A DNA stretch of 64,000 nucleotides, taken from positions 14,140 through 78,139 of the forward strand of contig JAFLUI010000002.1 in NCBI GenBank assembly GCA_022508825.1. Direction: 5' to 3'. Positions 14,508 through 39,084 of this stretch are shown one piece after another. The stretch comes from Oscillospiraceae bacterium. GTDB lineage: Bacteria > Bacillota > Clostridia > Oscillospirales > Ruminococcaceae. Below the pieces are notes generated by a model. That model saw nothing but the letters and a program-made list of their open reading frames with translations. It searched no databases and was not told the origin of the DNA. Position 1 is the stretch's first letter. Each line of letters opens with the position of its first letter. Made by a program: the position numbers and the translations under genes.

Positions 14508-16682
14508 ATGAAGCTAAAAAAATTATTTGCTGCAGCAGCAGCGGCGCTGATGCTTTCTGCCGTGGTTTTGACTGCAAATGCTGATATTTTCGAAAACGAC
14601 GAGGGCCTGACAGCTGCATACAGCGATGACGGTATCTCTCCTGTGGCTGACGGGGAGGGTATCCCTATTGATGATGAGCATTTTCCGGATTGGTTTTTTC
14701 AAACGGTGATTAAAGGATCATCTATTGATATTAATGGAGACGGATATCTTTCTCAGGATGAAATAGATGCGGTCTGCAATCCAGATCCAATCAAGCCGTT
14801 GTTTTTAGACAATAATCACATAGAAGACTTAACGGGAATAGAATACTTTACTGATTTGAAATTACTTAGCTGTTCTAATAATCAAATTACAAACCTTGAT
14901 ATAAGCAAACTTACCAATTTAATATATCTTAATTGCAATAAAAATCAGCTTACAAGCCTTGATCTCAGCAACAATACAAATTTTACAACGCTTTTTTGTA
15001 ATGAAAATCAGCTTACAAGTCTTGACCTTAGCGGATGTACACAATTAACAAGTAAAAATTTTTCTGCTAAGGATAACAAATGTGTAATTGCATTGAATGA
15101 ACTGACCGTTGATGCTCTTTGTGAAGAACTGAAAAAATACAATAAAAATTTTGATAAAAACAATATTACCTCATGGGACAGCGGCGTTGAGGGTAATTAC
15201 ATCACAGGGGATACTGTTTCATACACATATTACTGCGGAATAGAAGGCTGTTATCTGGAGGCTGAAATTGAAATAGCTATATCTATTGATGAAACTTTTG
15301 ATGATGAATTGGCAAAAATAATTGGAGATTGTTTAAAAGATGGTGATGGCAATAGCTTGAATGGTTTGGCGGATGATGGCAAATTTTCATCAGAAGAAAT
15401 ATCGCAGGTAAAGCAGATCAGTATCAGCAATGCAGAAAAAGTAGAAAGCTTAGAGGGAATAAAAATTTTTTATAATCTTAAGAATCTTTTATGTAATGAA
15501 AGTCGTATCACAGAACTTGACCTCAGCGGACTTGAAAATTTAGAAGAGGTTACCGTCAAATACAGTTATTCCCCAAATCAGCCCAAAGAAGAACGAGGTG
15601 CCCTCAAAATAATTAATGTGACCGGCTGTCAATCGCTTACTGCAATTTGGGCTAACGGAAATTCGATTAATGAGATCATTGGCTTAGATGATTGTAAAAA
15701 TTTGATTACACTGGATATGGAATACACTGATATTACAAGCATTGATCTCAGCAAATTAGAAAATCTGAGTGATGTCAGATTACACTATACTCCGCTGATA
15801 AGTATTGATATAAGTAAAAATGCAATAACCGATAAAGAGAAATTCGGAGTAGGCTGGCATCTGTCCTCCATGGGTGAAGTAACGGATGGCAGCAGCCTGA
15901 TCGCAAAAATGCGGGCTTATGATGGGAATTTCAGAGTGGAAAAGACATCTAACTGGCAATATGCGACAAAGCTGAATACCGATAAAACTACAAGTACTAC
16001 CAATGGCGATGATTGGACAGATTGGAAAGAAATGAATGCTCTGCTTGGAGATAATGCGGAAAATGCAGGCGGACTGATACGTACATTAGCATTGCAGAAT
16101 TACACAGCGGGTGACATTGAGATACCTGAAGGGTTAGCGATACCTGAAGGCGCTATTCTCGTCAAATATAATTACGACTATGGTGTGACTTATGCAGACG
16201 ATCCTTATCATACTAAATTTATACCGGAAATTATGATTACAATAGCTAAGCCTCCCGAAGTCGGAACTAAGCCAACCGATCCCGAACCTACCGAGCCGGA
16301 GCCCACTGACCCGGAGCCGACTGAGCCGGAGCCCACCGATCCTGACCCGACTGACCCGAAGCCAACCGATCCCGAACCCACCGACCCAAAGCCAACTGAC
16401 CCTGAACCCTCTGAGCCGGAAAGACCCGGTCAGGATAACGAAAATAACAAGCCTGCACCGGAGGCTCCTGTACCTCCAGGAAACGGCTATTATCCCGCTC
16501 CCGGCATTTACATTCCGGCGGGTGTAAGCTCTTCTGAGGGAGAGGACGTTTCCTCAGATGCGGGAATTTACGAAAGCGGCGAGCTGATCGATTCGGTTAC
16601 TCATGTATGGATCGCAATAATTCCTTTTGTGACAGCAGTCATTGGGTCAATTATTAAAAAACGACTCAGATCAAACAAATAA
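14508..16682 (+). CDS. Cell-surface leucine-rich-repeat protein with Pro/Thr/Glu linker and C-terminal membrane anchor
   Basis: Signal peptide MKLKKLFAAAAAALMLSAVVLTANA. One Ca-binding EF-hand/dockerin-like loop (DINGDGYLSQDEIDAV). Repeated LxxLxCxxNQLTSLDLS LRR units in two blocks. PTDPEPTEPE linker, terminal TM helix plus a KKRLRSNK stop-transfer sequence. Confidence 0.75.
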   Translation: MKLKKLFAAAAAALMLSAVVLTANADIFENDEGLTAAYSDDGISPVADGEGIPIDDEHFPDWFFQTVIKGSSIDINGDGYLSQDEIDAVCNPDPIKPLFLDNNHIEDLTGIEYFTDLKLLSCSNNQITNLDISKLTNLIYLNCNKNQLTSLDLSNNTNFTTLFCNENQLTSLDLSGCTQLTSKNFSAKDNKCVIALNELTVDALCEELKKYNKNFDKNNITSWDSGVEGNYITGDTVSYTYYCGIEGCYLEAEIEIAISIDETFDDELAKIIGDCLKDGDGNSLNGLADDGKFSSEEISQVKQISISNAEKVESLEGIKIFYNLKNLLCNESRITELDLSGLENLEEVTVKYSYSPNQPKEERGALKIINVTGCQSLTAIWANGNSINEIIGLDDCKNLITLDMEYTDITSIDLSKLENLSDVRLHYTPLISIDISKNAITDKEKFGVGWHLSSMGEVTDGSSLIAKMRAYDGNFRVEKTSNWQYATKLNTDKTTSTTNGDDWTDWKEMNALLGDNAENAGGLIRTLALQNYTAGDIEIPEGLAIPEGAILVKYNYDYGVTYADDPYHTKFIPEIMITIAKPPEVGTKPTDPEPTEPEPTDPEPTEPEPTDPDPTDPKPTDPEPTDPKPTDPEPSEPERPGQDNENNKPAPEAPVPPGNGYYPAPGIYIPAGVSSSEGEDVSSDAGIYESGELIDSVTHVWIAIIPFVTAVIGSIIKKRLRSNK
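16267..16421 (+). repeat. In-frame tandem 12/24-nt repeats encoding the (K/E)PTDPEPTEPE linker
   Basis: Repeated CCNACNGANCCNGANCC units are visible in the DNA. They lie inside the CDS 14508..16682. Confidence 0.8.
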
Positions 16683-20846: not shown

Positions 20847-20961
20847 CGAGAGTGGCGGCTGCTGAAAATTCAGCAGCCATAGTTATAATTCTTTGACCGT
20901 CATTAACCCGGAAACTCACGCATATACATAGAAAGAAATACCGTGTATTGGAGTGAGCATA

Positions 20962-21105
20962 TTGAAGGTAAAAGCAGGTCAGGATATCGAGGAACGCGCC
21001 GTAGTTCTCGGCCGTTATATTCTCGAGAATAAAGCTACTGTTCGTGCCGCTGCTAAACAGTTCGGAATTTCAAAATCCACGGTGCATATGGTTGTAGTAA
21101 ATTAG
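20962..21105 (+). pseudogene. spoIIID: spoIIID 5' segment (interrupted gene; SpoIIID codons 1-42 end at 21086, then 5 element-derived codons and a stop)
   Basis: TTG start with GGAG 7 nt upstream. Translation (M)KVKAGQDIEERAVVLGRYILENKATVRAAAKQFGISKSTVH matches the SpoIIID HTH region (B. subtilis ...KKTVRVIAKEFGVSKSTVHKD...). The start codon is uncertain. Confidence 0.85.
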
Positions 21106-21108
21106 AAA
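21064..21108. other. attL (host half-site + CA core + element left arm TATGGTTGTAGTAAATTAGAAA)
   Basis: See the mobile element entry. The left arm 21087-21108 is the reverse complement of the right arm 40585-40606, apart from 2 mismatches. Confidence 0.75.
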
Positions 21109-21137
21109 ATGTGGTTTTTGTGGTTATATAAAGATTT

Positions 21138-21190
21138 GCATCACTCATTTCATCGCTCACGCAAAGCGAATTAATGAGTGATGCTTATTT
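21138..21190 (+). terminator. Long nested hairpin plus T-tract just inside the element's left end
   Basis: GCATCACTCATT (21138-49) pairs with AATGAGTGATGC (21173-84). An inner TCGCT/AGCGA stem is present, followed by TTATTTT. It would stop read-through from the spoIIID promoter into the element. Confidence 0.55.
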
Positions 21191-21257
21191 TAGCTTATAT
21201 ACCCTGCTCTTGTTTTCTCCCTCAGAAACAATGATATTTTCTTTATTACTTTGCTTT

Positions 21258-21314
21258 ATCGCCGATTTTTATCAACGATTTTTGTCGCCGATTTTTTATC
21301 GCCGATTTTCTTTT
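21258..21314. repeat. Four tandem 13-14 bp repeats, (A/G)TC(G/A)(C/A)CGATTTTT
   Basis: ATCGCCGATTTTT, ATCAACGATTTTT, GTCGCCGATTTTTT and ATCGCCGATTTTC, read directly from the sequence. Confidence 0.8.
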
Positions 21315-21420
21315 CACTGAGATCAGTGTTATGCGTTCCGTTTTTTGAGCGTTCACCAATATTACCAATCTTATTATTTCGGCAAATTTTATAAATTTCT
21401 AAAAATCTGCCGAAAATCTA

Positions 21421-21449
21421 TTGACAATTTTTAGGATTTAGTTTATACT
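21421..21449 (+). promoter_or_regulatory. SigA-type promoter of the ATPase gene
   Basis: TTGACA (21421-26), a 17-nt spacer, then TATACT (21444-49). Confidence 0.5.
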
Positions 21450-21493
21450 AATATAAAATGAAACATTGGACTTCAGCTATTCGGGGGTGTATT

Positions 21494-22723
21494 ATGAGAT
21501 ATATTGAACGTCATATGGAGGATCGAATACTTGATTTGAGTAAATCATACTCCGCAATACTTCTGACCGGACCTCGTCAAGCAGGAAAGACAACAATGCT
21601 CCGATCCCTTGCAGAAAAAGAAAATATCGGTCGTGAATATGTATCTTTGGACGATCTTACAGAACGTGATATGGCAAAGAACGACCCCAATCTATTTCTG
21701 CAGCTGCACAAGCCGCCGGTACTGATCGATGAAATACAGTACGCCCCGGAGCTGTTCACATATATAAAGATCCACATTGACGAGGAGCATAATCCGGGAG
21801 ACTTCTGGGTGACAGGGTCACAGATTTTTCGTTTGATGCGTGGTGTGCAGGAATCTCTTGCAGGACGTGTGGCGCTTCTGCATATGTCTCCCTTATCACA
21901 GCGAGAAATTACAGGGGCAAAGTGTATACCATTTACCACAGACTTTGACAAGCTTCTGGAAGAAAGCAAAAGCTTTACTGGAATTACTGTACCTGAATTG
22001 TTTCGCCGTATCTGGACAGGCTCTATGCCGGGAATTGTCAGCGGCCAGTATCCCGACAGAAACATTTACTACGCATCTTACCTTTCAACCTATGTAGAAC
22101 GGGATGTGCGGGATATTTCTGCCGCTGTGGATGCACTGAAATTCAACAGATTCATTACAGCTGCCGCTGCAAGAACATCCCAGCTTCTGAATTACAAAGC
22201 CCTTGCAGATGATGCGGACATTGACATGGCAACTGCAAAGGCATGGTTAAATATCCTTGAAACACTGGGAATAGTTTTTCTGCTGCACCCCTATTCAAAT
22301 AATGTATTGAAGCGGACTATAAAGACTCCGAAGCTATATTTTTACGACACAGGACTTGTCTGCTACCTGACAAAATGGTCATCTCCGGAAGTTGCCGAAA
22401 GCGGTGCCATGAACGGAGCACTTCTTGAAAATTTCACAGTATCTGAGATCATGAAAAGCTATCAGAATTCCGGACTTGAACCATATCTGTATTTCTACCG
22501 TGACCGGGACTCCAAAGAGATTGATGTTATCATAGAAGGTGACGGTATGCTTTGTCCCCTTGAGATCAAAAAGACTGCCACTCCGGACAAGCGTCTTGCC
22601 AAAACATTTGATGTCATCAACAAATCACCGCTTAAGTCGGGTACGGGAGCTATTCTTTGCATGGCGGAGAAATTCAGTGCATTTGACAAGGATACTTTGA
22701 TAGTGCCAATTGAGATGATATAG
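21494..22723 (+). CDS. AAA-family ATP-binding protein with C-terminal DUF4143-like domain
   Basis: Walker A LTGPRQAGKTT and Walker B VLIDEIQ. ATG at 21494 with GGGGTG upstream; the tracked ORF starts at 21458. Confidence 0.75.
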   Translation: MRYIERHMEDRILDLSKSYSAILLTGPRQAGKTTMLRSLAEKENIGREYVSLDDLTERDMAKNDPNLFLQLHKPPVLIDEIQYAPELFTYIKIHIDEEHNPGDFWVTGSQIFRLMRGVQESLAGRVALLHMSPLSQREITGAKCIPFTTDFDKLLEESKSFTGITVPELFRRIWTGSMPGIVSGQYPDRNIYYASYLSTYVERDVRDISAAVDALKFNRFITAAAARTSQLLNYKALADDADIDMATAKAWLNILETLGIVFLLHPYSNNVLKRTIKTPKLYFYDTGLVCYLTKWSSPEVAESGAMNGALLENFTVSEIMKSYQNSGLEPYLYFYRDRDSKEIDVIIEGDGMLCPLEIKKTATPDKRLAKTFDVINKSPLKSGTGAILCMAEKFSAFDKDTLIVPIEMI

Positions 22724-22915
22724 TTTAAGGGGCTATTGCATTTTTGGCAACAACCCCAAATTTCAATTCATGAGACATTTTATACGACTCTAAGAGCATA
22801 AAAAACTAATATTCATTTATAATAAGTATTAGTTATAAAAAGAAATGATCTTATGGAACTTAAAAAAGAATAGAACAACTGAAATTTCAAGTTAAACTAT
22901 TGTTTAATAATCCAC

Positions 22916-25900
22916 CTAAAATATACGATGAATAATTTCCAAACTTAGGCAATCTAACTTTGCAAGAATATTTTCTAAATTATCATCTTCTTGTCCGGGT
23001 CTGCATCCATTAGGCCAGTCACCTTCTAACTTAGTCTTGTTTTGTAGCAACTTCTCCACATATAAGTATTTCCATTTTGCAAAATGTAATGCGCTCAAAT
23101 TTTTTGCTAGATCCTCTCTTTTTATTAATTGAATACTGGGTCTATGTTTTACCCAATATCCATCTTGACAGTAATGAACAAAATAGCAAACTAAATGAAT
23201 AGGTGTTACAGCAGCTGCCACAATGCAAATTAGAGCAAAAATTATTCCGAATAAGTCTTTATAATTTTTAAAAATCACCCAAAAAGCAATCGTAATTGCT
23301 ATTGAACAAATCAGTTTGATGAAATTAATTAAAAATACCCTTTGTTTTAGCAATTTAATATAAAGAATAAATTGGTTAAGTAATTTAGTAAAAGATGTAC
23401 ATCCTTTTGATAAATTAATAACTATTTTCTTAAATAAATAATAAAAATCATGCACAAATATTATCAATTGCGCTGCATTAAAGGAAATTACACATAAAAT
23501 AATAGCTAAATATATTACTACAGACCATTCTGGTGCATTCAGCAGTATCCCAAACATAACTATTCCCGGGAAAAAAATACTAGAAATTATAAAAAATATG
23601 TTATCTACATATTTACCTTGCCTATATATATGATGGTGTGTAATAATATAAATAATAAAAATTATTTTTGTCGCATAATTTAAAATATCATCGTAAAAGT
23701 TTACAATATGCAATGGTGTCACAGTTTTTTGAATACTCCAACTTGAATCTATTAACTTGGTCAATAATATAATGGCGCTAACGCCTACTGTAACCATCAT
23801 GGATATATATTTCATAAAAATACACAAATGGACAATTTTTACATACCTAAAACTCTTGGAAATAGATAATGAAAAATGTGTATTTTTGTACCGTTTTAAA
23901 AAAGTGGTCATTTTCATAGTAAAAAAATATGTGGAAAATCTTGTTTCAACACGATTTTCCAATTTATGAATCAACCGACAATTTTGTAATATCAAATCAT
24001 TTAACCAACGGTTTTTTAAACTAAAAATCTTAAGAATTGCATCATGCATATTTTGTTGATCAAATAGAACCATGCTATTAGTAAAAGCAATTAGTATAAC
24101 AAAATCCGTATCATCATTTATACTCTCAATTATCAATTGTTCAAATTCTTTGATAAAATCCGACAAAATATTTTGGCGATTACGAAAGGCTTCTGACATA
24201 AAGTTTAATGTATTCACAAGTTCTATACTGCCTTTATTTAGAATGCTATTCCTATAAGAAATATTATTTTTAATCACATCCCAACAGTATCTAGCAATCT
24301 CATAAGCTTTTGCATCGTTAGTTACCTCACAGTATAAAACAAGTGCATCTCTCATTCCGGAACCATTAATAATGCCATTGTACTCGTCATCTCCAATATC
24401 TTGATGCTGCTCCATAATGCTTTCCACCAAGAAAAATTCTTGAAATCTGCGATGAACAAATGAAACACTTCCATTAATTCCTCCAAACCTACATATTTTT
24501 GCATATTCTAAAATCTTGATGGCTTTCTGCCAGTATTCTTTAAATAATCCATTAGACTGCTGATATAATTCATAAATTGGACATTCCAAACCATACTTGG
24601 GTGATTCCTGAAAAAAGGCAGCAAGTCTTTTGGCTGCTTTATGTACATCTTCTTTTGAGAAGTCTTCACTTTCTATCTTTCCTGCACACTTATTTAAACG
24701 GCCATCAACAAAATTACTATATAAATCCATTTGATTTTTAGGGAAAACTATACCTTTTTCTTTTATAAAATTGATTAATAATGTCAAGTAAAAGGGATTC
24801 CGACATAGTACTACAAGATCTTCTCTTTTTCCAAATAATTCTTTAACAATTTCATCTGCATTGTTCAAATATTTTTCCAGCATTGTTTGAATTTTGATAT
24901 CATTAAATTCTTGTATACGAAGAATAATAGTCGGTCTAATTGCCTCAGAGGGAGCTTTATACAATCTAGATGCTACGACACCACCACTTTGATTATTACC
25001 TGTCATAAACTGAAATAATATCTCAGAAATATGATCAATTAGTTCCTGACAATGCTGTTTACCCATTAAACATGGCATCTCATCAAAAGAATCAAAAATG
25101 AAATACCACCGTCCATCTTCTAGCATACTATCAAAATAACCATTCAAAAATCCATCTGTAAAAAAGTCACCATTTTCATAAAGTTCTTCTTTCACAAATT
25201 CTATCAAATCATTTTTATTCGGTAATTTATTTATGTTCCAATTTTTATTCCATTTTTTTAGGTTTATATAGACAGGAATTTTTTTTGTCTTTTTAGACTC
25301 ATCCAAAAGTTCAAGACATAGTTTTCTCAAAGAGACACTCTTACCTGCGCCTGGATCTCCTAGTACTAAAAAAACATCTGCTCCATGCTTAGTTTTTTTC
25401 AGACATTTTAATAAATCTGAATACTTCTTTTTACGTCTTCCTTTAACATTTACTTCCACCTCTGCTTCAATGGGAGTAAACAAATTTTCGTTCCAATCTG
25501 TTTCTCTATTTAATGTTTCTAACCGTTGCCGAAGTGCATTACAAAATGCCATACTTTTTTCAGAAAAATTTTTTTCACGAAAGATCGGATTTTCATTTCC
25601 TTTATGAATTCCAATAGCTGTTCTATCCTGTCCATAAAATACTAATATGATAATAAAAAATATCCAAAACAGAACAATAAGTGCCGTTTCGTTTCCAATA
25701 TTATTAGGGCTATCAATTCCTATCTTATTACACAAAGAATCAATAATATTATTGTATAACTGACTGACAAATGAAGCAAATTCAGTTTTTGAAAACGCTT
25801 TACATATTCCTGTAAGACAAGGCTCTGCCATAAATAAAATCGTACGCATTCCTTCATTCTCTAAATTTCTCACTAAGAGAAAAGCAGATACAAACAATAT

Positions 25901-26011
25901 GAAACACAAGCTAATAATTTGTGCTTCACTTTCACTAAATACACCAAACGATAACGCTATAGCAATGATCATCGCTATTAGTGCCGCTAACCATATGATA
26001 TTTTTTTTCAT
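22916..26011 (-). CDS. Membrane-embedded NACHT/STAND NTPase (N-terminal TM helices, NACHT, helical region, C-terminal multi-TM domain)
   Basis: Walker A VLGDPGAGKSVS, Walker B WYFIFDSFDEM, and the NACHT-type motif LCRNPFYLTLL. About 3 hydrophobic helices precede the NTPase and at least 6 lie in the last ~330 aa. Very AT-rich. An alternative start lies at 26020. Confidence 0.7.
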   Translation of the reverse strand: MKKNIIWLAALIAMIIAIALSFGVFSESEAQIISLCFILFVSAFLLVRNLENEGMRTILFMAEPCLTGICKAFSKTEFASFVSQLYNNIIDSLCNKIGIDSPNNIGNETALIVLFWIFFIIILVFYGQDRTAIGIHKGNENPIFREKNFSEKSMAFCNALRQRLETLNRETDWNENLFTPIEAEVEVNVKGRRKKKYSDLLKCLKKTKHGADVFLVLGDPGAGKSVSLRKLCLELLDESKKTKKIPVYINLKKWNKNWNINKLPNKNDLIEFVKEELYENGDFFTDGFLNGYFDSMLEDGRWYFIFDSFDEMPCLMGKQHCQELIDHISEILFQFMTGNNQSGGVVASRLYKAPSEAIRPTIILRIQEFNDIKIQTMLEKYLNNADEIVKELFGKREDLVVLCRNPFYLTLLINFIKEKGIVFPKNQMDLYSNFVDGRLNKCAGKIESEDFSKEDVHKAAKRLAAFFQESPKYGLECPIYELYQQSNGLFKEYWQKAIKILEYAKICRFGGINGSVSFVHRRFQEFFLVESIMEQHQDIGDDEYNGIINGSGMRDALVLYCEVTNDAKAYEIARYCWDVIKNNISYRNSILNKGSIELVNTLNFMSEAFRNRQNILSDFIKEFEQLIIESINDDTDFVILIAFTNSMVLFDQQNMHDAILKIFSLKNRWLNDLILQNCRLIHKLENRVETRFSTYFFTMKMTTFLKRYKNTHFSLSISKSFRYVKIVHLCIFMKYISMMVTVGVSAIILLTKLIDSSWSIQKTVTPLHIVNFYDDILNYATKIIFIIYIITHHHIYRQGKYVDNIFFIISSIFFPGIVMFGILLNAPEWSVVIYLAIILCVISFNAAQLIIFVHDFYYLFKKIVINLSKGCTSFTKLLNQFILYIKLLKQRVFLINFIKLICSIAITIAFWVIFKNYKDLFGIIFALICIVAAAVTPIHLVCYFVHYCQDGYWVKHRPSIQLIKREDLAKNLSALHFAKWKYLYVEKLLQNKTKLEGDWPNGCRPGQEDDNLENILAKLDCLSLEIIHRIF

Positions 26012-26068
26012 ATAAACCATCCTATACTTTTAATACATACCTTATTACTCATACGATATGCTACGCTA

Positions 26069-27148
26069 TTATTCCTTTTTTGACTGATTTCTCTCAATAA
26101 CATCCTTTAATTCACTAAGGGTCATTATGTAGTTTTTCTTGTGATGTATCATGCGGTGACAGTTTGAACATAAGCAGATCATATCATTCACCGGATCAAC
26201 ATTTGTTTCTCCATCAAGAGTATGAAGCGGTTTTATATGATGAACTTCTATAAAGTTTTCACCAAGTTCATACATACTCTTAAAGTCGAAACCGCAAGCC
26301 ATACAAGTATACCCATGTGCTTCTATAGCAGCTTTTCTGTTTTGCGGATTTCGTTCATATCTTCTTCCATAATGTTCTATTTTTCGTCCTTCGGTACCGA
26401 TCCTGATTACAGTAGTTTCCAAATCGTCTGAATTCAACAATTCTTTTATTTCAATTTCAGGCTCGGTATCGTCAATATCACCCATCATCCATACAAAAGA
26501 GTGAGCATCTATCAATTCAGCAGAGCGGTCAATGTCAGCCGCCAGCTTTTCCTGCACCCACTTCATAATTTCCAGAAATGTCTGATAGTTTTCCCATGTA
26601 CATTCGGAAAGGCAGTCTGTTTCAAAACCAAGTCTTTTAAATCTTTCCCTGAATTTATCCGGTCTTGCCGGGACGTATTTTGTACAGTCCTTTATAAAGA
26701 ACAAAAAAGAAAGCAATGGAAATTTTTTGCCCCACAGTTCTATAGCTTCACCAAATAAGGCTTCATCTTTACCATCGGAAGTAAAAAGCCTGTACAAAAT
26801 ATCTTCAGATTTATACAGATGATTTGAAAACTTCTTTTCAATATCATATGTAACATCTCGCCAGTTCAAAAGGTTCTGTTGTATACTGTCAACACGCATT
26901 TTCATAACAGAAAGTACTTTCTTAGTTATCTCTCCTGTTCCGACCATATCAGCAGACCATGAGGGAATACCAAGAATACGCTGTGCCTTATCATAAATAT
27001 CACGCTTGTACCATTCCTGATATCTGATATATCCGGAGGAAAATGAAATTTCCATAGTCGGACAATTCCTTTCCGCCTGTTTCTTTAAAACTGCATCATA
27101 AAACTGTAAAAGACATCGTTGAAATCTCTCTTCGTTTGGAATAAACAT
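26069..27148 (-). CDS. HNH endonuclease with unknown ~270-aa N-terminal domain
   Basis: C-terminal GYTCMACGFDF...FIEVHHIKPL...NDMICLCSNCHRMIHH (HNH with CxxC pairs). The gene ends 48 nt upstream of the NACHT gene on the same strand. Confidence 0.75.
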   Translation of the reverse strand: MFIPNEERFQRCLLQFYDAVLKKQAERNCPTMEISFSSGYIRYQEWYKRDIYDKAQRILGIPSWSADMVGTGEITKKVLSVMKMRVDSIQQNLLNWRDVTYDIEKKFSNHLYKSEDILYRLFTSDGKDEALFGEAIELWGKKFPLLSFLFFIKDCTKYVPARPDKFRERFKRLGFETDCLSECTWENYQTFLEIMKWVQEKLAADIDRSAELIDAHSFVWMMGDIDDTEPEIEIKELLNSDDLETTVIRIGTEGRKIEHYGRRYERNPQNRKAAIEAHGYTCMACGFDFKSMYELGENFIEVHHIKPLHTLDGETNVDPVNDMICLCSNCHRMIHHKKNYIMTLSELKDVIERNQSKKE

Positions 27149-27225
27149 TTATACCTCCAATAATTGTTTTGCAAATGTTGCCGCCTTAGCTTCCATTAAA
27201 AGCTAAATCATTGCTGTATAAATCA

Positions 27226-27254
27226 AGTATATCACAAAAACAGCTATTTTTCAA
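27226..27254 (-). promoter_or_regulatory. SigA-type promoter for the HNH-NACHT gene pair
   Basis: On the minus strand: TTGAAA (27254-49), a 17-nt spacer, then TG-n-TATACT (27231-26). Confidence 0.5.
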
Positions 27255-27370
27255 CGCATTTGGACTTTAAATTTTAAACAACATTCCGCAGGCAGTCAAT
27301 GGAGTTTCCCTCCATCGACAGACAGATGGACCACACCTGCCTTTCCTGCGAAAATATGTATATTTCTGAC

Positions 27371-27406
27371 AAAAAATAAACTCTCCTCATGAGATCACGA
27401 GAAGAG
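27371..27406 (-). terminator. Rho-independent terminator after the mob module
   Basis: Minus-strand CUCUUCUC...GAGGAGAG, an 8-bp stem with one G-U pair, followed by UUUAUUUUUU. Confidence 0.55.
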
Positions 27407-27422
27407 CAATACCACAATATGA

Positions 27423-27590
27423 TCACTTAGCCTGTTCAGAGGCTGATTCACTATCCTTATTTTTTTCATACTCCGTGATTGCGTTCCTGAGCTTTTTACA
27501 TCCTACCTCGGTAAAGACCTTCATAAGCATATTATATGTATCTTTTTCCGAGTTGGGGTTGTGAAACCTGAATGTCAGCTTCTGCTGCAT
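27423..27590 (-). CDS. Small hypothetical protein (55 aa)
   Basis: Not in the ORF track because it is under 60 aa. ATG with AAGGAG 8 nt upstream. Translation MQQKLTFRFHNPNSEKDTYNMLMKVFTEVGCKKLRNAITEYEKNKDSESASEQAK. Sits downstream of the relaxase fragment. Confidence 0.45.
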   Translation of the reverse strand: MQQKLTFRFHNPNSEKDTYNMLMKVFTEVGCKKLRNAITEYEKNKDSESASEQAK

Positions 27591-27727
27591 AAGACCAGCT
27601 CCTTTTCTGTTATAAAAAAGCTAAGATTGTCCATTTCATTCTATGCTTTCAGGGATATAATATATGCCTGAAATCAATGCGTATAACATTTATGGACATT
27701 AAAATCCTGTTGTATGTAAGATAAATC

Positions 27728-28171
27728 TTAACTTTGAGAACCAAAAACCTGCTCGCAGATTTCGTGTAATGCTCGTCTTATACCTTCATCGTCTGTAAGC
27801 CTCGAACCGTCAAGAAAGCTTATGGTATTTACCATAAAATGTGTATGAATATTTGGTGTATCCGAATGTACGCAGAACACTACCTGATGCTTGTAAAAAT
27901 AAGAAGCTATGTATGAGGATATCCTAAACATAGCTTCATCTGATATATTAGCGTCCGTTGACAGCGAAATGATGATATGCAGCAGTTGCCTGCCGTCATC
28001 CTTACCAAACAACCTTTTGACGTGCTTCATCATATATATGGCTTCTTCCGGTAAGGCATTATAGCATCCTGTCAATCCATATGTCTTTACCGAACGGCTC
28101 ATATACTCATAGAGCGTTTTTATTGCGTCAGGATTCGTGTACGGTCTGTCTACTAATTTAATATACCACAT
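27728..28171 (-). CDS. Relaxase/mobilization nuclease domain protein, short (147 aa; probably truncated)
   Basis: MobA/VirD2-type pattern: LLHIIISLS..., then the histidine triad region VFCVHSDTPNIHTHFMVNTI. Full relaxases are usually several hundred aa long. Confidence 0.6.
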   Translation of the reverse strand: MWYIKLVDRPYTNPDAIKTLYEYMSRSVKTYGLTGCYNALPEEAIYMMKHVKRLFGKDDGRQLLHIIISLSTDANISDEAMFRISSYIASYFYKHQVVFCVHSDTPNIHTHFMVNTISFLDGSRLTDDEGIRRALHEICEQVFGSQS

Positions 28172-28437
28172 ATATTCATAACTCCTTCCTCAAGTGCTTC
28201 GCAGATCTCAGGGTAATCGTTTCCAGCAATTTCATAAACCTTGTTTACGGCATTGCTCAGAACGGATAGCCTTGCAAAAACCTCCTGTTTCATCTTCAGT
28301 GCATCTGCTGAATCTGACTCCATAAGTCTCTGTCTGATGTAGCTGCTCATACTCATGTTGCATAAATCGGCATCATTTACAACCTGCTCGTACTGCTCAT
28401 CGCTCAGTCTGACATTAATTTTTCTTTCTTTAGACAT
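28153..28437 (-). CDS. MobC-like ribbon-helix-helix relaxosome accessory protein
   Basis: MSKERKINVRLSDEQYEQVVNDADLCNMSMSSYIRQRL is typical of MobC/RHH proteins. Overlaps the relaxase start by 19 nt. Confidence 0.6.
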   Translation of the reverse strand: MSKERKINVRLSDEQYEQVVNDADLCNMSMSSYIRQRLMESDSADALKMKQEVFARLSVLSNAVNKVYEIAGNDYPEICEALEEGVMNICGILN

Positions 28438-28743
28438 GGTAATCATTTCCTCCTTATATAACATTTATATGATTGTATTGATACTCGTACTGTGCACCTA
28501 AAGAACCAAAATTACTCCAAAACACGTAAATCATGCCTGTCATTACAATTGGATATAAATATTATTCTTATTCTCATTACAGTTAGAGTACCTTAGCAAG
28601 GCAAGCTGTTTTTGTATCACAACTTGCTTTACCACTATGTAATTGTGGGAGTAAAAAGTTACATAAGCCCTCCATAGGGCACTTGAGTTGATCTAATATA
28701 TATCAGTGACCATATACTGAGAGATTCTTATATAAAATATTAC

Positions 28744-28772
28744 TTTACATCTCTATGAACTTCTGGTATAAT
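28744..28772 (+). promoter_or_regulatory. SigA-type promoter with extended -10 for the 774-aa gene
   Basis: TTTACA (28744-49), a 17-nt spacer, then TG-n-TATAAT (28767-72). Confidence 0.5.
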
Positions 28773-28904
28773 AGGTATAAAGTTCTATAAAATTATTATC
28801 ATATAATCGCAGCTATATAGCCTATTTTCTTAAGAAAAAACTGATTTTTTTGTAGACATACGCGTTTTTTAGACATACAAAAATTGTCAGATAGGAGCAC
28901 GCCT

Positions 28905-31208
28905 GTGGAATATTATGAAATTTTAAGATGCATACCTGAACCAAGTAAAAAAGATTCTGTACTTGAGCCTCCCAAGATGCCAAATTACTCCAATAAAGAT
29001 TTAGATAAATTTATTGAAAATCCAGCGGCTTTGCGGGGAAAATATGTAAACTTGCGGCAGAAGCTTGTCGACATATATGAGCATTGTTTTCAATATAATG
29101 AGATCATTCTTAACAATCCCAGCGTAAGTATACTAATGCAATTAATACGCATTAAGCTAATTTCTCCACTTTTTCAACTAGATTATAAAGAATTTGGAGA
29201 AATATTAAACGAAAAATTATATGTATCTTTAGAAACCAAAATTGTAAATACCAAATTATGTTACATTTCGTCATACAATAACAATGTTTATTACTTCATA
29301 AATAACAATATATTGACTTCACGTTCTTTAAGTAAGAATGAAGTTTTAAAAAACATTTCCAAAACTGAACACATACTGGCTTTTGAAAAAGCCTATAACA
29401 TCTTTTGTAAATTTTTGGAAGCGTTTACTAGAGATGATGAGAGTAAGACAATGAAATATTTTATGTATTTTATTGCAAATTATAAAGTTGACAAAAAACA
29501 ACCAACTCCAGATTCTATTTGGGGTTATTTACCAGACCCGTATTTTGCCTTTGGAATCAGTGAAAAAATTACATTTATCCCCAGCACAAATCATCAAGCC
29601 AACTACATTTTAATTGATAAAGAGTCGAAAATATTATTTAATCATGATATGTATTCAGTTGGCAGCTGCTTTTTTAACAATTTTTTGCAATTAAAAATTA
29701 AGGAGAAAGATAAAAAAGCTTTCAACAATATGCTGATTTTGATTTCCAAAATAGTGGGGAAACGATGCAAAAACTTTTCAAAACCATCTTATACAATACA
29801 TTATGATATCTATGATTTAAACAACTATACATACAAATTACAATTTGAAAATTCAACAGTTGATATAACAATAAATGATAGGACATTTGTACCAGATAAT
29901 CTTACTGAACACCAACACTGGAACCCATTTCGTCCAATTGGAATTCTAAATAGCAAAATATTGCAGACAGTAACTGATAATTATAACCCCGAGACGTTAT
30001 ACCAATATTTACATTCTATGGCTTTTGATGCTTTAGATCCCCATCAAATCGATAATATTTCTAAAATGCTGACTATGACATTAATGACATCACATGACGA
30101 GCACAAGGTGGTTATAGTAACTTGTAATTCTAATAATATCTCAGACATTAAAAAATTTTTCACAGGCATAATATGCTCCGAAGAGGCACATAATCTGTCT
30201 GTAATTGATATGAATATTGATATCAAGGAAATAACTCATAAAGACTTTAAAAATAATCTTTGTCAACTTAGCTGCACCAATACAAGAGCTATATTTTTTG
30301 ATCATTTTGATGATAAATTAACAAAGGGTACACTAACTAATTTAATACAGGCACAAAAAGATACACATATGCAGATTATGGTCTTTCAAACCTCAAGAGA
30401 TGTCAGCTATATATCAAATGACAATTTTATACATATAAATTTATCTGACTGGAAAAAGAGGGAAGATATACATGAACTTGATAATTACAACGCACTATGG
30501 GGAAGGCTTTACCTTTCCTTGTATGGACTTCATTTGATTTTCAAAGAAAAAAAGGATAAGTATCGATTCCCACTTGCAGGTGAAAATCTTATAATTGAAG
30601 ATAGTGTCTCAATCATAGTAAGAGACGAAATAGTTGCAAATATAGCTAATGAGTTTATTGAAAAATGTTTTATAGACATTGATGAAGCCAAAAAGCGAAA
30701 AAAAGAACGGCGCAAAGAAATTGCCAAAATAAAAAAAGAAAATCCAGGTGCATCAAATGATACTATTGAGCGCTTAATTAACAAAACACCTTTATTTTCA
30801 ACATATGATGAAGATTTTAAAGTGTATGCAGATACATATTTAGACACACAATGTCCCAAAAGCGTTGTTTCAGCACATACAATTACAAATAAAGACATAA
30901 AAAAATATATAATGAAAAATTATAAAAAAACTTTCAAGCATACACAGATAAACGCAATGTACACTGGTCACGATAACAAAGCTATGGGCTTCCAATATCT
31001 AAGTTTAAAAGAACCGTGGGAAATCACGGAGAAGCAGCTGATGGAAACTAATATAAACAAGACTCCAGATATTGATGAACAAATACAGACAAAACTAAAA
31101 AATTTGATTGAGGTATTGCCTAAAACCATTGATTTCAGTAAGTTGATAGCTACTCCACCTCCAAGTATTCGTATAAAAAGAACACCTGCATCCTCTGATG
31201 AAAATTAA
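28905..31208 (+). CDS. Large hypothetical protein, no recognisable motif (orphan)
   Basis: Long uninterrupted, very AT-rich ORF. The tracked start is TTG at 28884. The in-frame GTG at 28905 has AGGAG 7 nt upstream and is preferred. No P-loop or catalytic motif seen. Confidence 0.6.
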   Translation: MEYYEILRCIPEPSKKDSVLEPPKMPNYSNKDLDKFIENPAALRGKYVNLRQKLVDIYEHCFQYNEIILNNPSVSILMQLIRIKLISPLFQLDYKEFGEILNEKLYVSLETKIVNTKLCYISSYNNNVYYFINNNILTSRSLSKNEVLKNISKTEHILAFEKAYNIFCKFLEAFTRDDESKTMKYFMYFIANYKVDKKQPTPDSIWGYLPDPYFAFGISEKITFIPSTNHQANYILIDKESKILFNHDMYSVGSCFFNNFLQLKIKEKDKKAFNNMLILISKIVGKRCKNFSKPSYTIHYDIYDLNNYTYKLQFENSTVDITINDRTFVPDNLTEHQHWNPFRPIGILNSKILQTVTDNYNPETLYQYLHSMAFDALDPHQIDNISKMLTMTLMTSHDEHKVVIVTCNSNNISDIKKFFTGIICSEEAHNLSVIDMNIDIKEITHKDFKNNLCQLSCTNTRAIFFDHFDDKLTKGTLTNLIQAQKDTHMQIMVFQTSRDVSYISNDNFIHINLSDWKKREDIHELDNYNALWGRLYLSLYGLHLIFKEKKDKYRFPLAGENLIIEDSVSIIVRDEIVANIANEFIEKCFIDIDEAKKRKKERRKEIAKIKKENPGASNDTIERLINKTPLFSTYDEDFKVYADTYLDTQCPKSVVSAHTITNKDIKKYIMKNYKKTFKHTQINAMYTGHDNKAMGFQYLSLKEPWEITEKQLMETNINKTPDIDEQIQTKLKNLIEVLPKTIDFSKLIATPPPSIRIKRTPASSDEN

Positions 31209-31247
31209 TAACATATATTAATGATGTTTTCGTTCAGAAGTACTAAG

Positions 31248-31288
31248 ATCATATCCGCCGCAAAATAAGTGACGGATATGATTTTACT
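31248..31288. terminator. Hairpin between convergent genes
   Basis: ATCATATCCG (31248-57) pairs with CGGATATGAT (31273-82), followed by TTTACTTT. Confidence 0.5.
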
Positions 31289-31846
31289 TTATTTGCCAGC
31301 CTTAACCCTCCTATAAAACGCACTTTTACTCATGCCTACCCTGTGCATAAAATCAGTGGCAGTAATTTCCTTAGCAATCCACTTGTCATACAGGACATTC
31401 CATAGCTGCTCGTTCACGGCAGTTGGCTTTCTGCCCTTGTACTTACCGTTTGCCTTTGCCACTGCTATACCCTCTTTCTGGCGATCCAGAATGTAGCCAC
31501 GTTCAAGCTCGGCAACTGCGGCAAATACTGTCAGCATAAACTTTCCAGCAGGAGTAGTGGTGTCAATGCTTTCCTTTTTGCTTACGAACTCCACTCCCTT
31601 TGCTGTGAAAATGTCAACAAGCTCCAACAGATCACGGGTGTTGCGGGCAAATCTGGAAATGGACTCAACGATAACCGTGTCTCCGGAACGAACAAAGCCC
31701 AGCATTGCTTTAAGCTGAGGACGTTCCTTTGACTTTCCGGACATCTTGTCAATGTATATCTTTTCCACTCCAAGCTGTTCCATGATGACCTCCTGTCTTG
31801 CGGTATTCTGTTCCTCTGTGGAAACCCGTATATATCCGACTTTCAT
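31289..31846 (-). CDS. Small serine recombinase (resolvase/invertase family)
   Basis: 185 aa. N-terminal MKVGYIRVSTEEQNTARQ contains the catalytic Ser. C-terminal HTH. Confidence 0.9.
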   Translation of the reverse strand: MKVGYIRVSTEEQNTARQEVIMEQLGVEKIYIDKMSGKSKERPQLKAMLGFVRSGDTVIVESISRFARNTRDLLELVDIFTAKGVEFVSKKESIDTTTPAGKFMLTVFAAVAELERGYILDRQKEGIAVAKANGKYKGRKPTAVNEQLWNVLYDKWIAKEITATDFMHRVGMSKSAFYRRVKAGK

Positions 31847-31896
31847 AAAAAATCACTCTCCCATTAGACTATACCTTAACGGCACACTAAAAATTG

Positions 31897-31970
31897 ATAA
31901 AAAACTGTCCCGATAGAGTTGAAATCCGAATTACGGCACGTTCTGTAATTCACTCCAATCCTATCGGGAC
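31897..31970 (-). terminator. Long nested hairpin plus U-tract after the amidoligase/GATase operon
   Basis: GTCCCGATAG (31907-16) pairs with CTATCGGGAC (31961-70). Inner GAATTAC/GTAATTC stem. The minus-strand transcript continues AGUUUUUUAUC. Confidence 0.6.
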
Positions 31971-31975
31971 ATTTG

Positions 31976-32902
31976 TCAGTACATTTCCATCATTTTAAGC
32001 TCTGCAATGCTGTCCCTCATTAAACCCGGCTTGTAGAACATTTCTTCGATCTCCAACTCGTCATAGCCGTAATCCACCAGCATAATTACATCTTCTTCCG
32101 GTATACCAAAATATCCGGCATACTCTATCAACGTATCCATAGTACCGTCATAGTAAGGACTTCTATGGAAAAAGCCGTATCCTCCATACCAATCAGGGAA
32201 ATCAAACTGCTGCACTTCTATCACTCCGCTTGGGTCGATCCTCAGGATGTCACCGCAGGACACGTTCACCTTGCTATAATTTGTCAATCCCAGCTTCTTT
32301 ACAACTCTGCTAAGAATTTCGTCAGTGCTTGCATACATATAAAAGCCATTGAACTTGTAAAGTGCCATAGGATTGTCGCCTTTCACTATGTACAGATTGT
32401 TATGACCGTCAAGTATGGTATAACAGAAAGAACCCTCGGTTTTCTCTGCCATCTTTCTGATGGAATCAAAACCGAGGGTATTTTCTTTCTCTATAAGCTG
32501 TACGGCAACGTAGCTGTCCGTCTGGATATGTGTATGCGGTAGCTTTTCCTCATTGCGCAGCATGATGTCATTATGCAGGACACCATTATGCGCAAGGGCA
32601 AATTTCAGCTTGTCGACCTGTCCCGGAAATGGATGATTGTTGTAGTTGAACTTCTCGCTGCCCTGAGTAGTCATTCGGGTATGTCCCATTATTACCCTTG
32701 CATCATCAGGTATCTTATACCACATTTTATGAGCTGCAACGGGTCTTTTATAGATATGCATACCTGAGCAGGTATTGAAAGCTATCCCTGTTGCATCAAT
32801 GCCACGGGCTTCACATTCCTTTGAGAGTACACCGATAATTCTGTTTTTGCTCCGGGTCGAAAAGATATTGCCGTAGTCGATCAATCCAAATAAACAGCAC
32901 AT
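31976..32902 (-). CDS. Class II (Ntn-type) glutamine amidotransferase domain protein
   Basis: Starts MCCLFGL, giving Cys directly after Met as in Ntn amidotransferases. The ATG lies 1 nt after the amidoligase stop, and GAGGAGG sits within the upstream gene's end. Confidence 0.65.
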   Translation of the reverse strand: MCCLFGLIDYGNIFSTRSKNRIIGVLSKECEARGIDATGIAFNTCSGMHIYKRPVAAHKMWYKIPDDARVIMGHTRMTTQGSEKFNYNNHPFPGQVDKLKFALAHNGVLHNDIMLRNEEKLPHTHIQTDSYVAVQLIEKENTLGFDSIRKMAEKTEGSFCYTILDGHNNLYIVKGDNPMALYKFNGFYMYASTDEILSRVVKKLGLTNYSKVNVSCGDILRIDPSGVIEVQQFDFPDWYGGYGFFHRSPYYDGTMDTLIEYAGYFGIPEEDVIMLVDYGYDELEIEEMFYKPGLMRDSIAELKMMEMY

Positions 32903-32903
32903 A

Positions 32904-34010
32904 TTAATATTCCTCCTCACACTCTACCGGTTCGTTTACGTAAAGTCTGCGTTCTTTCAGATAGGTAATAAGCTCCGGTTCCTCAACGCCTGAAACAAAG
33001 TCGCACCAATTCATCAGGGTCATTTCTTCATCCGTCATCCGTGCGGATATATCACATATCCGGTTTACAAGCTGCAGGGCTGCAACAAAGGTATTGTATT
33101 TGAGAGTACCACGGAAAATACGGAACTCTATAGTTTGACTGTTTGTAAGATTAACGCAGGTATAACGTCCGGAATAGTTTTTCTTTGCATTATCAAAGGT
33201 AGCTTTGGGATTTTCCTTGATACCGTATCTTGCCGCCCATCGTGAAAGCTGACTTTCGGTGCGTCTTGAAAATTTAAGAAGCTCCTGCCAGAAACGTTCC
33301 ACAAAGAACAGCACCCTTGAAATGCACGCTTCCTGTTCCTCATGGGTATCGCCAAAGGATGAACGGTTAACATGGATATGCAGTCCGCAGGTTTTTGTTT
33401 TGTGGGAACGATAGCCAAGAGAGGCTGCCTTTCTCATAACATCAGCCCACGGCATTTTGTTAAGATGGTAATCAAGGGACATTGGATGGGTAACGATCTC
33501 CATTCCATCGTTAAGGCTGCTGTCACGCTTTATGTATATACGTCTTGTACTGTCGGCATTAGCAATGTCGATAATCTTTTCCGCATTTGAAGCATACTGG
33601 CCACCTCCGTCAATTTCAAGCTCCACACCAAAATACCGGCTGCTGCTGCCATAAAAGATCGGATCCGGTTTAAAGCTGTAGTCGTGGATATATTCGCCTG
33701 AATCGTGCCTACAATAACAGTTATGGCAATATGGATTATCAGGCTCATCATCCAGATAATAAGCGTCTTCAGCATGAATTGTTCTTCCGCAGTCCTCGCA
33801 GTCTGTATAGTATCGGGTATAGCATCTGTCACAAAGAATGTGATTGCTGTCTCCGGCAACATCGTCAGCCCATATCCTGTCGCCGCAATGACTGCAAATT
33901 ACAGTCTCATCGTCATAACATTCCTGACAGATCTCCTCTCCGTCAAAAGTTTCCATGTCATCAAGGCTGCAGGTGTATCCGCAATGGCTGCATATAAAAG
34001 TATCACTCAT
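32904..34010 (-). CDS. Amidoligase-family (glutamine-synthetase-like) enzyme with N-terminal multi-CxxC zinc-ribbon region
   Basis: At least five CxxC pairs in the first ~110 aa. Then YFGVELEIDGGG, DSSLNDGMEIVTHP and TCGLHIHVN, as in the Amidoligase_2 family. ATG at 34010 with AGGAGG upstream. Confidence 0.65.
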   Translation of the reverse strand: MSDTFICSHCGYTCSLDDMETFDGEEICQECYDDETVICSHCGDRIWADDVAGDSNHILCDRCYTRYYTDCEDCGRTIHAEDAYYLDDEPDNPYCHNCYCRHDSGEYIHDYSFKPDPIFYGSSSRYFGVELEIDGGGQYASNAEKIIDIANADSTRRIYIKRDSSLNDGMEIVTHPMSLDYHLNKMPWADVMRKAASLGYRSHKTKTCGLHIHVNRSSFGDTHEEQEACISRVLFFVERFWQELLKFSRRTESQLSRWAARYGIKENPKATFDNAKKNYSGRYTCVNLTNSQTIEFRIFRGTLKYNTFVAALQLVNRICDISARMTDEEMTLMNWCDFVSGVEEPELITYLKERRLYVNEPVECEEEY

Positions 34011-34462
34011 TTTTGATCTCCTCCTAAAATAAAGAATGGGCAAGTCCCAAAAGACTTGCCCGAAGCATTTGATATTTGTTTTCTGACTACATTACCTCCT
34101 ATAAAAAATAAGCCGCAGCATAAGCTACGACTTATTTTCGCTTCCGAGAATGACGTCAATTACTGCACACAGAATTGTGGCAATAGTAATGACCGCCATA
34201 TCTACGATTTTTGTTGCCATTTTCTCGGATATTGTGTTACCCGAAAACACGTCTGTAAAAAGATTTTATGAATGTCTCCAGTATGCTCTTGATCGTCCTC
34301 AACAGATTTTTCATCATATAGATATCCTCCTTTAATTTGATGAAGCTATGCTTCTCATGGATATAATATATGATTGAAAAATGAGGGTTTACATGGTATA
34401 GAAACAATATGATATATCACAGTTTACAATCATATATGTATAAATAGAAAAATGTAATTTGT

Positions 34463-34996
34463 TTATTTATTCTTCTTAAATTGCTTTTTAAACTCTGATT
34501 TTAGCATATTTACTCCCTTAGAAGAAGTTAGCTCTGAATCGTTTAACTTACCCATTTTTATTTGTTTACAAACTTCTATGAAAGCCTTACCCATAGCTAG
34601 AGTAATCACGCCCGCAGTTCCCCCTGAAATCATACCACCGACAACTGAACCAATTCCTGGAACAAATTTAAAAACATTCGACACAATAGTTTTTCCTATT
34701 ACTGTTGTCCCGCCAACTCCCAAAGCTGCTATAGCAAGAGTTTTAAGTCCATCTTTTTTTACATCAATTTTGAATATTCCTGCTATCGTAGCCATAAGTG
34801 CAACTTGTTCACCAATAAGTAACGGGGCATCTGCAAATGGGATCGGAACAGCGCCTGTGGCAGCCGTTGCTGCAACTGCCGCTGCGACAGCATTATCTGC
34901 TTTTTCAAGCATTTTCTTGATTTCCAGATATTTAAGTTCATCAATAAAGTCATCATCGACTCCCTCATTTTTTAAATTCTCATACTCGTTTGACAT
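34463..34996 (-). CDS. DUF697-like glycine-zipper membrane protein (gene D of the 4-gene operon)
   Basis: 177 aa. Hydrophobic Gly/Ala-rich helices (GAVPIPFADAPLLIGEQVALMATIAGIF and VPGIGSVVGGMISGGTAGVITLAMG). AGGAGG ribosome-binding site. Starts 18 nt after gene C. Confidence 0.6.
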   Translation of the reverse strand: MSNEYENLKNEGVDDDFIDELKYLEIKKMLEKADNAVAAAVAATAATGAVPIPFADAPLLIGEQVALMATIAGIFKIDVKKDGLKTLAIAALGVGGTTVIGKTIVSNVFKFVPGIGSVVGGMISGGTAGVITLAMGKAFIEVCKQIKMGKLNDSELTSSKGVNMLKSEFKKQFKKNK

Positions 34997-35014
34997 AGTT
35001 AATTCCTCCTAAAT

Positions 35015-36457: not shown

Positions 36458-36471
36458 TACATCTCACACCC

Positions 36472-37314: not shown

Positions 37315-37400
37315 ATCCTTATCCTCCATTTTTTATTTACATCATTAGATGACATTTATAATAAATATCAGCATCAATGCTATTTGTAAATATGAGACAT

Positions 37401-38288: not shown

Positions 38289-38442
38289 TATTGCCTCCTG
38301 TAATAGTCTTCCATATTCTGTTCAATTATTACAGCATATCGACTGCTTAATTAGGGCTTTATCAAAGTATACCATATTACAATAGACAATATATGTCATT
38401 CTCAAAAAATTCATATATTATAATTCAGAAACTTATGACATA

Positions 38443-39054: not shown

Positions 39055-39084
39055 AAGCAGTAACAGAAATAACGGAGGTAATAT

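Follow-up and report, generated by a model that had tools for sequence, protein, structure and literature searches.

How a sporulation gene came to lie in two pieces 19.5 kb apart, and whether it can be made whole again, is the question raised by the stretch of Oscillospiraceae DNA analysed here (64,000 nucleotides, hereafter the window). The gene is spoIIID, a sigma-E mother-cell gene in B. subtilis, and between its halves stands an island whose right end carries the gene for a large serine recombinase (LSR). Positions 21064-21108 and 40585-40631 are very probably the attL and attR of this 19.5-kb island, put into the His-44 codon of spoIIID by its own LSR, with excision rejoining both the host gene and the recombinase gene. 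The att sites are in themselves ordinary for an LSR, and serine-integrase att architecture of this kind is textbook (PMC3783163). New are the target gene spoIIID, the wide use of that target and a recombinase tail encoded across attP.

The spoIIID 5' fragment (20962..21086, + strand; PF12116, by tblastn) comprises codons 1-41 and the CA of the His codon, with a TTG start at 20962 and an in-frame GTG at 20953, and the 3' fragment (40607..40765, + strand) begins with the CA of the His codon and ends at a TAA stop. In the window, tblastn detected a single 5' fragment (residues 1-42) and a single 3' fragment (residues 39-93). Joined at CA, the flanks read ...ACG GTG CAC AAA GAT... (T V H K D), in agreement with the original prediction that attB would restore the codons GTG CAC AAA GAT (V H K D). 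The rebuilt 93-aa protein matches the Pfam SpoIIID family (PF12116, E=2.4e-37) and shares 99% identity with P0121, a SpoIIID without interruption. Furthermore, the gene of P0121 shows the site naturally unoccupied in a relative (L040), which is 92% identical to the window over 448 nt, colinear across the junction, and reads ..ACCGTA-CA-TAAAGAT.. at that point; spoIIID is intact also in L041-43. The island is inserted in a coding sequence whose frame is restored by in-silico excision, as is characteristic of a gene-intervening element. Between the window and L040 the spoIIID codons differ by 15 synonymous and 4 non-synonymous changes, an excess that could reflect selection on the split gene, but the insertion is possibly recent, which leaves present use unproven.

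The left arm, P' (TATGGTTGTAGTAAATTAGAAA, 21087-21108, + strand, as read from the sequence), and the right arm, P (TTTCTAATTTGCGACAACCATA, 40585-40606, + strand, codons F L I C D N H T), are complementary at 20 of 22 positions by our own count, and a repeat finder lists the pair as inverted repeat I19 (22 nt, 91% complementary), so that the arm match claimed beforehand is reproduced. A match this good would arise by chance with a probability of about 1e-10 to 5e-10: for 20 or more matches in 22, at the one place dictated by the gene junction and with no search freedom, the value is 1.2e-10 for equal bases and 4.8e-10 for the element's composition. The symmetry ends abruptly at 22 nt, and widening to 44 nt gains just one match. 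Both arms abut CA, as had also been stated, at 21085-86 (5' of the left arm) and at 40607-08 (3' of the right arm), and this CA is the sole sequence common to the two junctions (attL ..ACGGTG-CA-TATGG.., attR ..CCATA-CA-CAAAG..). The dyad axis falls between the C and the A of the core, coinciding with the 2-nt identity. In attL (21064..21108, + strand) a B half-site (spoIIID codons ..FGISKSTV) is followed by the core at 21085-86 and the P' arm at 21087-21108, while attR (40585..40631, + strand) consists of the P arm at 40585-40606, the core at 40607-08 and a B' half-site (spoIIID codons H K D I T E K).

The attP reconstructed from these parts is P(22)-CA-P'(22), a 46-bp dyad, and attB is ..ACGGTG-CA-CAAAGAT..; the attP of the window element is a reconstruction and was not met as such in any collection searched. 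The predicted joint of the circle would read ..GACAACCATA-CA-TATGGTTGT.. (..CCATA-CA-TATGG..), and an exact-pattern scan for attP (TTTGCGACANCCATANNTATGGNTGTNGNAAA) gave 0 matches in the viral_contigs and 0 in the metagenome_contigs of JGI. Dyad half-sites of 40-50 bp and a 2-bp non-palindromic crossover as the sole required identity, which define the att sites of LSRs, were both found here. As in the attachment sites of A118/LI, Bxb1 and phiC31, all four half-sites have inner positions in common, which here, counted from the core, are A at +2 and G at +5. In attB of serine integrases the zinc-ribbon motif sits 5 bp nearer the centre than in attP (PMC3783163); in the window the motif in the B arm scored best (7/10) at a 5-bp inward shift, tied with a shift of -2, and the B' arm showed no peak at the 5-bp shift. 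Alternative crossovers at AT, AC or a second CA at 40609-10 were rejected, each of which would break the spoIIID frame or delete codons.

The inserted element, delimited by composition and domain searches, extends over 21087..40606 (19,520 bp) plus one CA, and its GC content is 36% against 47-49% in the flanks, stepping at both ends. The original prediction that the boundaries are exact to the nucleotide is upheld by six independent lines that concur: the 2-nt identity, the dyad axis, the restored spoIIID frame, the empty site in L040, the GC step at both ends and a conserved 14-codon continuation of the LSR gene.

The ORF of the integrated-form LSR (39085..40734, + strand, 549 aa) corresponds to NCBI MCH5192432.1, from an Oscillospiraceae MAG. 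Its domains are Resolvase (PF00239, residues 3-149, E=6e-32), Recombinase (PF07508) and Zn_ribbon_recom (PF13408), and the serine nucleophile S10 in a YCRVST motif as well as Cys301, 304, 321 and 332 are invariant in 26 homologues. An AlphaFold model built on the 26-homologue alignment (mean pLDDT 66.5) resolved the catalytic domain, the recombinase domain and the zinc ribbon, with long coiled-coil helices (340-457) between the zinc-ribbon strands and short C-terminal strands, whereas residues 505-549 were unstructured (pLDDT about 26). The protein thus contains the resolvase-type catalytic domain and the recombinase and zinc-ribbon domains with embedded coiled coil by which LSRs are recognised. 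The nearest named families are CcrB, CcrC and XisF, each scoring under its curated cut-off, and among structures 3g13 and the SPbeta integrase come closest; the TnpX N-terminal domain 2mhc also matched. With the full LSR domain set in 39085..40734, and with CA carried by the relatives, the sites appear to be what had been proposed, namely the substrate of a large serine recombinase. A small resolvase (31289-31846) was rejected as the responsible enzyme, being internal, without a site at the ends and part of a conserved backbone.

The conserved LSR ends at codon ACA 40606-40608 (..FLICDNHT), and residues 509-549 are out-of-frame spoIIID 3' sequence, a 41-residue junk extension that could impair the integrated form. 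Just upstream of the recombinase lies an XRE-type HTH regulator (HTH_3; 38557..38910, + strand), followed by a terminator-like hairpin at about 38950-38980 and a promoter-like TTGACA-17-AATAAT at 39026-39054, both read by eye from the sequence and unscored; the LSR promoter looks vegetative.

When the ends of the island are joined in silico through CA, the LSR gene does not stop at the crossover: 39085..40608 continues as ..DNHT-YGCSKLENVVFVVI*, giving 522 aa, and does so in frame only after excision; the original prediction had left unremarked that attP lies within the recombinase gene. These last 14 codons plus TAA (YGCSKLENVVFVVI*) occupy 21087..21131 (+ strand), of which the first 22 nt are the P' arm and 21129-21131 the stop. 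Directly after that stop comes a strong hairpin followed by TTATTTT (21138..21191, + strand; dG -28.7 kcal/mol, z -7.4), left uncalled by a simple terminator scan owing to its long loop; it is terminator-like and would halt transcription of the LSR gene in the circle or, in the integrated state, transcription running on from spoIIID. Exactly 14 codons and then a stop were found in 27 of 39 distinct metagenome attL sequences and in 12 of 14 readable near-family P'-type sites, with the consensus Y-G-x-x-x-[IL]-E-R-[FL]-[IVM]-W-x-[IV]-x. In the tail beyond the 22-nt arm the entropy by codon position is 1.22/0.75/1.53, and right after the tail stop it jumps to a flat value of about 1.85 bits at all positions; the tail Arg is preserved via both CGN and AGR codons. 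Conservation of the tail as a peptide across lineages supports the junction to the nucleotide and to the frame.

In the integrated state the tail codons belong to no ORF of at least 35 aa, and on the simplest reading they would be translated only from the circular form. A search for the excised-form C-terminus, which scored just 3 candidates, returned no tail-bearing recombinase protein, and a single-sequence AlphaFold prediction of the 522-aa form was unusable (pLDDT 37). Viral contigs of 40% identity (L050-52) carry a 13/22 dyad with CA within an uninterrupted recombinase frame, and their tail reads ..KKERFKVVFQV..; in a BLAST of the L050 C-terminus against the window tail the alignment stopped short of the tail. 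A literature search found no paper describing an LSR with attP inside its own reading frame. The P' arm is also read in two frames, as the end of SpoIIID-N when integrated and as recombinase tail when circular, and a TAG at 21103-21105, conserved in the arm (AAATTAGAAA), stops the truncated SpoIIID ORF (20953..21105) of the integrated state.

Homologues of the window LSR number in the thousands, and their similarity to it stops at about residue 508, which is the crossover. The common 508-aa forms end ..DNHT*, since the host His-Lys CAT AAA reads ACA TAA in the LSR frame, and longer homologues end in out-of-frame spoIIID sequence like the window LSR. A scan with the arm pattern, covering one genome per species and with the core excluded from the pattern, recovered from MAGs of gut Clostridia about 9 sites each of attL and attR, every one with CA, and the attL layout was found also in about 45 metagenome loci. 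Loci reached via the protein alone (61-92% identity) show the P-CA-B' layout at the same spoIIID codon. CA in fact stands at every spoIIID junction of the relatives whose core the search pattern left free. The third codon positions of the P arm are conserved at 7/7 against 20/44 just upstream (L002, L044), which indicates that the arm is constrained as DNA besides as codons. No left end was found within 10 kb for L001, L002, L044, L046, L174 and L177, whose elements are longer.

More distant members show how far the symmetry extends. A complete 7.3-kb relative (L165) has CA at both ends and arms matching at 13/22, and a phage contig (L053; LSR 38% identical) contains an intact attP, GTTCCATTTAGTGAGTACGGTA-CA-TAAAGATGTAACTAAATGGAAC, of 22+2+22 nt with arms matching at 16/22. 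The claim of a near-perfect attP palindrome therefore holds for the sub-lineage of the window (20/22) but fails as a family rule. The rule for the family is an inner TAnGG..GT and an outer ..AGAAC/A around CA, and near-perfect symmetry is a sub-lineage trait. The attP of L053 lies at 3977-4022, 8 nt past the LSR stop and with phage genes on either side, and its central roughly 20 bp copy the spoIIID target around the same CA. Phages too, besides non-phage islands, appear to use the spoIIID His codon. Five further arm-pattern matches (L008, L012, L031, L033 and L036) were rejected as att sites, being chance matches in leucine-rich-repeat surface-protein genes; the pattern matches such genes because TATGGNTGTAGTAAATTAGAAA encodes YGCSKLE, a common repeat motif.

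Some relatives are inserted the other way round. In L001 (LSR 92% identical), L039, L044 and L045 the junction is P-TG-rc(B), and the LSR end adjoins the spoIIID 5' fragment on the opposite strand, so that the core remains CA when read along spoIIID and becomes TG when read along the element; the flip, seen at the one junction recovered per element, may have arisen by a change of core or by in-situ inversion. TG in inverted elements is expected if the arms are interchangeable and the central dinucleotide alone sets the direction. Polarity of serine integrases is attributed to the central dinucleotide alone in that part of PMC3783163 which cites Ghosh 2003 and Smith 2004. In the present family, orientation by the dinucleotide is seen in the natural comparison of the inverted elements only. 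In an unbiased metagenome sample the mark of inversion, a recombinase gene abutting the arm, was found at 0 of 66 judgeable sites, a sample that includes intact spoIIID genes of the HMDV type, so that the true junctions are fewer than 66. The 10 kb upstream of the recombinase in L044 are all polysaccharide-synthesis genes.

Based on these findings, a mechanism can be proposed. By analogy with the known LSR mechanism, strand exchange at CA would involve a 2-nt staggered cut and subunit rotation, and the orientation of insertion would be set by the CA core and not by the arms. The circular form would produce a 522-aa LSR with the conserved 14-residue tail, the tail, its stop and the hairpin being encoded at the left end of the island. 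In the integrated form the tail is swapped for host-derived sequence, here 41 junk residues and in most relatives an immediate stop. Excision at CA would restore both spoIIID and the full recombinase gene, presumably with the help of a directionality factor, which LSRs need for attL x attR though not for attP x attB. As with skin, SPbeta and gin, excision may take place in the sporulating mother cell, and the tail may matter for the integrase job or its control while the element is circular.

The timing of excision is where the cargo of the island comes in. The candidate defence genes are PDC-S01 (AAA_14/DUF4143; a PADLOC candidate), a NACHT NTPase of 1034 aa, an HNH nuclease and PDC-M09A/B; the mobilisation genes are a relaxase-domain gene and a NikA-like gene; and the remainder includes the small resolvase, a GATase and amidoligase pair, the XRE regulator and the LSR at the right end. 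The relaxase domain is of MobA/VirD2 type (147 aa), and the relaxase and NikA-like genes are conserved in L001, L002 and L177. Pfam and PHROGs revealed no phage structural, packaging or lysis genes in the element; phage-type matches were limited to the HNH nuclease, the regulator and a weak partition-like match. As judged from its gene content, the element is an integrative, probably mobilisable, island of candidate defence genes. A backbone of small resolvase, GATase_6 and Amidoligase_2, together with the relaxase-domain and NikA-like genes, recurs in L001, L177 and the window (31289-34043), and the elements that bear it vary in their other cargo, which may be a reverse transcriptase, Schlafen/AlbA, dynamin-like genes or NACHT.

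With such genes on board, the island might excise for horizontal transfer only, as an integrative mobilisable element for which spoIIID is a conserved, dispensable landing site and no developmental switch. The relaxase-domain and NikA-like genes, the XRE regulator beside the recombinase and the vegetative-type promoter read from the sequence all fit such an element, and conserved genes are reported to be a frequent target of LSRs (Durrant et al. 2022, PMC10083194). Against this, the family is widespread in lineages that retain intact spoIIID halves, and excision in the mother cell is common to every characterised element that splits a sporulation gene of that cell (PMC4191935, PMC5595907), though neither consideration is decisive. 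Excision for transfer alone is accordingly a serious contender, though somewhat improbable on balance, and it bears on the timing of excision, not on the att sites.

A bleaker alternative is that the att sites are read correctly and yet the island is a fixed relic which no longer excises, so that spoIIID is permanently broken and the lineage non-sporulating. Such a relic would be in keeping with the 41-aa junk tail of the integrated-form LSR, with the failure to detect attP or a circular form in the scans of viral and metagenome contigs, and with degenerate relatives such as L035 (a truncated spoIIID 5' part and a TA core) and the decayed inner copies of arrays. However, dead elements show decay and the window element shows none: its arms, CA cores, LSR frame, tail frame with stop and hairpin, and both spoIIID halves are all intact, which makes a relic unlikely. 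The reading of the arms as terminal inverted repeats of a DDE-type transposon with CA as a 2-bp target-site duplication can be dismissed as exceedingly improbable, for although 22-bp inverted ends with a direct 2-bp repeat also mark cut-and-paste transposons, the element has no transposase domain, one arm lies inside the LSR 3' end and accompanies the LSR in each relative, a single codon of a single gene is the invariable insertion point in many taxa, and the 14-codon frame continuity over the joint fits only a circular attP.

Under the preferred reading, that of attL and attR of an LSR island in spoIIID, the position of attP inside the LSR gene invites a further and more tentative proposal, which is rather unlikely as it stands. 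The gene may act as a state sensor, in which circular DNA alone would encode the full-length LSR with its tail and the integrated copy a tail-less or junk-tailed enzyme; the tail could bias the enzyme toward integration or mark it for turnover. The sensor would be at work in a very widespread family of islands with defence cargo and of phages, all directed at one spoIIID codon, and the islands would gate the whole of the late mother-cell programme by excising. If true, directionality or dosage would be partly hard-wired in DNA topology, besides a separate directionality factor. The conserved tail across attP offers in any case a simple way to study how the integrated and free states of an element might be sensed by its LSR.

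Several known systems share parts of this arrangement. In mycobacteriophages with integration-dependent immunity, the att site lies in the repressor gene and integration changes the protein. Tn4451 with TnpX and Tn5397 with TndX are clostridial LSR transposons with multiple targets and a GA core, in which circularisation builds a promoter. The window island resembles them as a non-phage, probably mobilisable, LSR element with a predicted circular intermediate and a 2-bp joint, in which circularisation would alter recombinase expression; it differs in being specific for one codon, in its CA core and in that circularisation would complete a coding sequence. The archaeal SSV-type 'suicidal' tyrosine integrases (PMC8371274), the nearest analogue found for an attP within the integrase frame, likewise have the att site inside a gene of the element, with integration changing the protein, but theirs is a tyrosine recombinase of which the split removes much of the enzyme, whereas the window LSR loses a 14-residue tail and keeps all its domains. 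Compared with A118/LI, Bxb1 and phiC31, the attP is similar in length (about 46-50 bp), in its imperfect dyad and in its non-palindromic, polarity-setting dinucleotide (PMC3783163), and is distinguished by unusually high arm symmetry (20/22) and by a 5-bp motif shift that is only partly visible.

The closest functional parallels are found among split sporulation genes. As with skin and SpoIVCA in sigK (B. subtilis, C. difficile) and SPbeta SprA-SprB in spsM, an LSR element splits a mother-cell sporulation gene, has its recombinase at one end, and rebuilds the frame by precise attL x attR excision (PMC4191935, PMC5025042, PMC5499854), which in the window is seen in silico. Unlike these, the window island targets spoIIID, is non-prophage-like, has attP in the LSR frame and is without a known directionality factor. 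Since SpoIIID of B. subtilis helps activate spoIVCA (PMC6957869), the window element would act one level further up the regulatory cascade of sporulation. The gin element (GirC/GirX, gerE, B. cereus; PMC5595907) is especially similar, being a non-phage element in the gene of a small HTH sporulation regulator, with more than one serine recombinase and defence-type cargo, and differs in its shared sequence (9 bp in gin against 2 nt here), its recombinase lineage and its target gene. A literature search found no paper naming spoIIID as a split gene. If the island can be excised, spoIIID, whose product acts above sigK in the mother-cell cascade, would be a further entry among the few sporulation genes split by excisable elements. 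Such insertions seem to be frequent among uncultured Oscillospiraceae of the gut and in other Clostridia, so that many 'broken' spoIIID calls in MAGs may represent switchable genes rather than lost ones. The exact 46-bp attP, the roughly 40-bp attB and their natural variants (the TG-core set) are potential genome-engineering tools from an uncharacterised LSR clade.

Some further features of these loci and of the window stand beside the main reading. A set of 120 metagenome matches to 'spoIIID 5' + CATATGG' was rejected as 120 junctions, as 71 of them are intact ..STVHMDV.. genes. These 71 loci among L054-L173 (e.g. L054, L070) are spoIIID orthologues reading CAT ATG GAT GTC GC, and their B' half-site TATGGATGTCGC agrees at 11/12 with the inner 12 nt of the P arm (reverse complement TATGGTTGTCGC) and at 9/12 with the inner 12 nt of the window P' arm (TATGGTTGTAGT). 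Possibly this type of spoIIID was the original target of the family; alternatively, attL may be a mimic of attB.

Units of [spoIIID 5' fragment - CA - P' arm - cargo] were also observed in head-to-tail arrays, 3.5-8 kb apart and with no recombinase between them, at L029+L013 (SVNU01000079.1), L026+L015 (CALATN010000205.1), L038+L030 (CALATN010000061.1), L071 and L106. They are unexplained by attP x attL or attP x attR, which would yield P-CA-P' joints. The inner 'type C' sites had been taken for bare 27-nt B arms, which was rejected when tblastn showed whole but decayed spoIIID 5' fragments; those of the inner array units are at 60-69% aa identity, one with an AA core.

Directly left of the spoIIID promoter, window positions 19910-20842 hold a decayed copy of the left-end gene of the element (21458-22723), with 90.8% identity over 888 nt, without the AAA_14 part and with a 34-nt upstream match. 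The copy could have been left behind by an earlier element or by the process that formed the arrays. In L040, the closest relative with an empty site, homology to the window is lost left of about 20897. Outside the element, a second low-GC patch (37% against about 48%) occupies window positions 14001-16000, around a 724-aa ORF (14508..16682).
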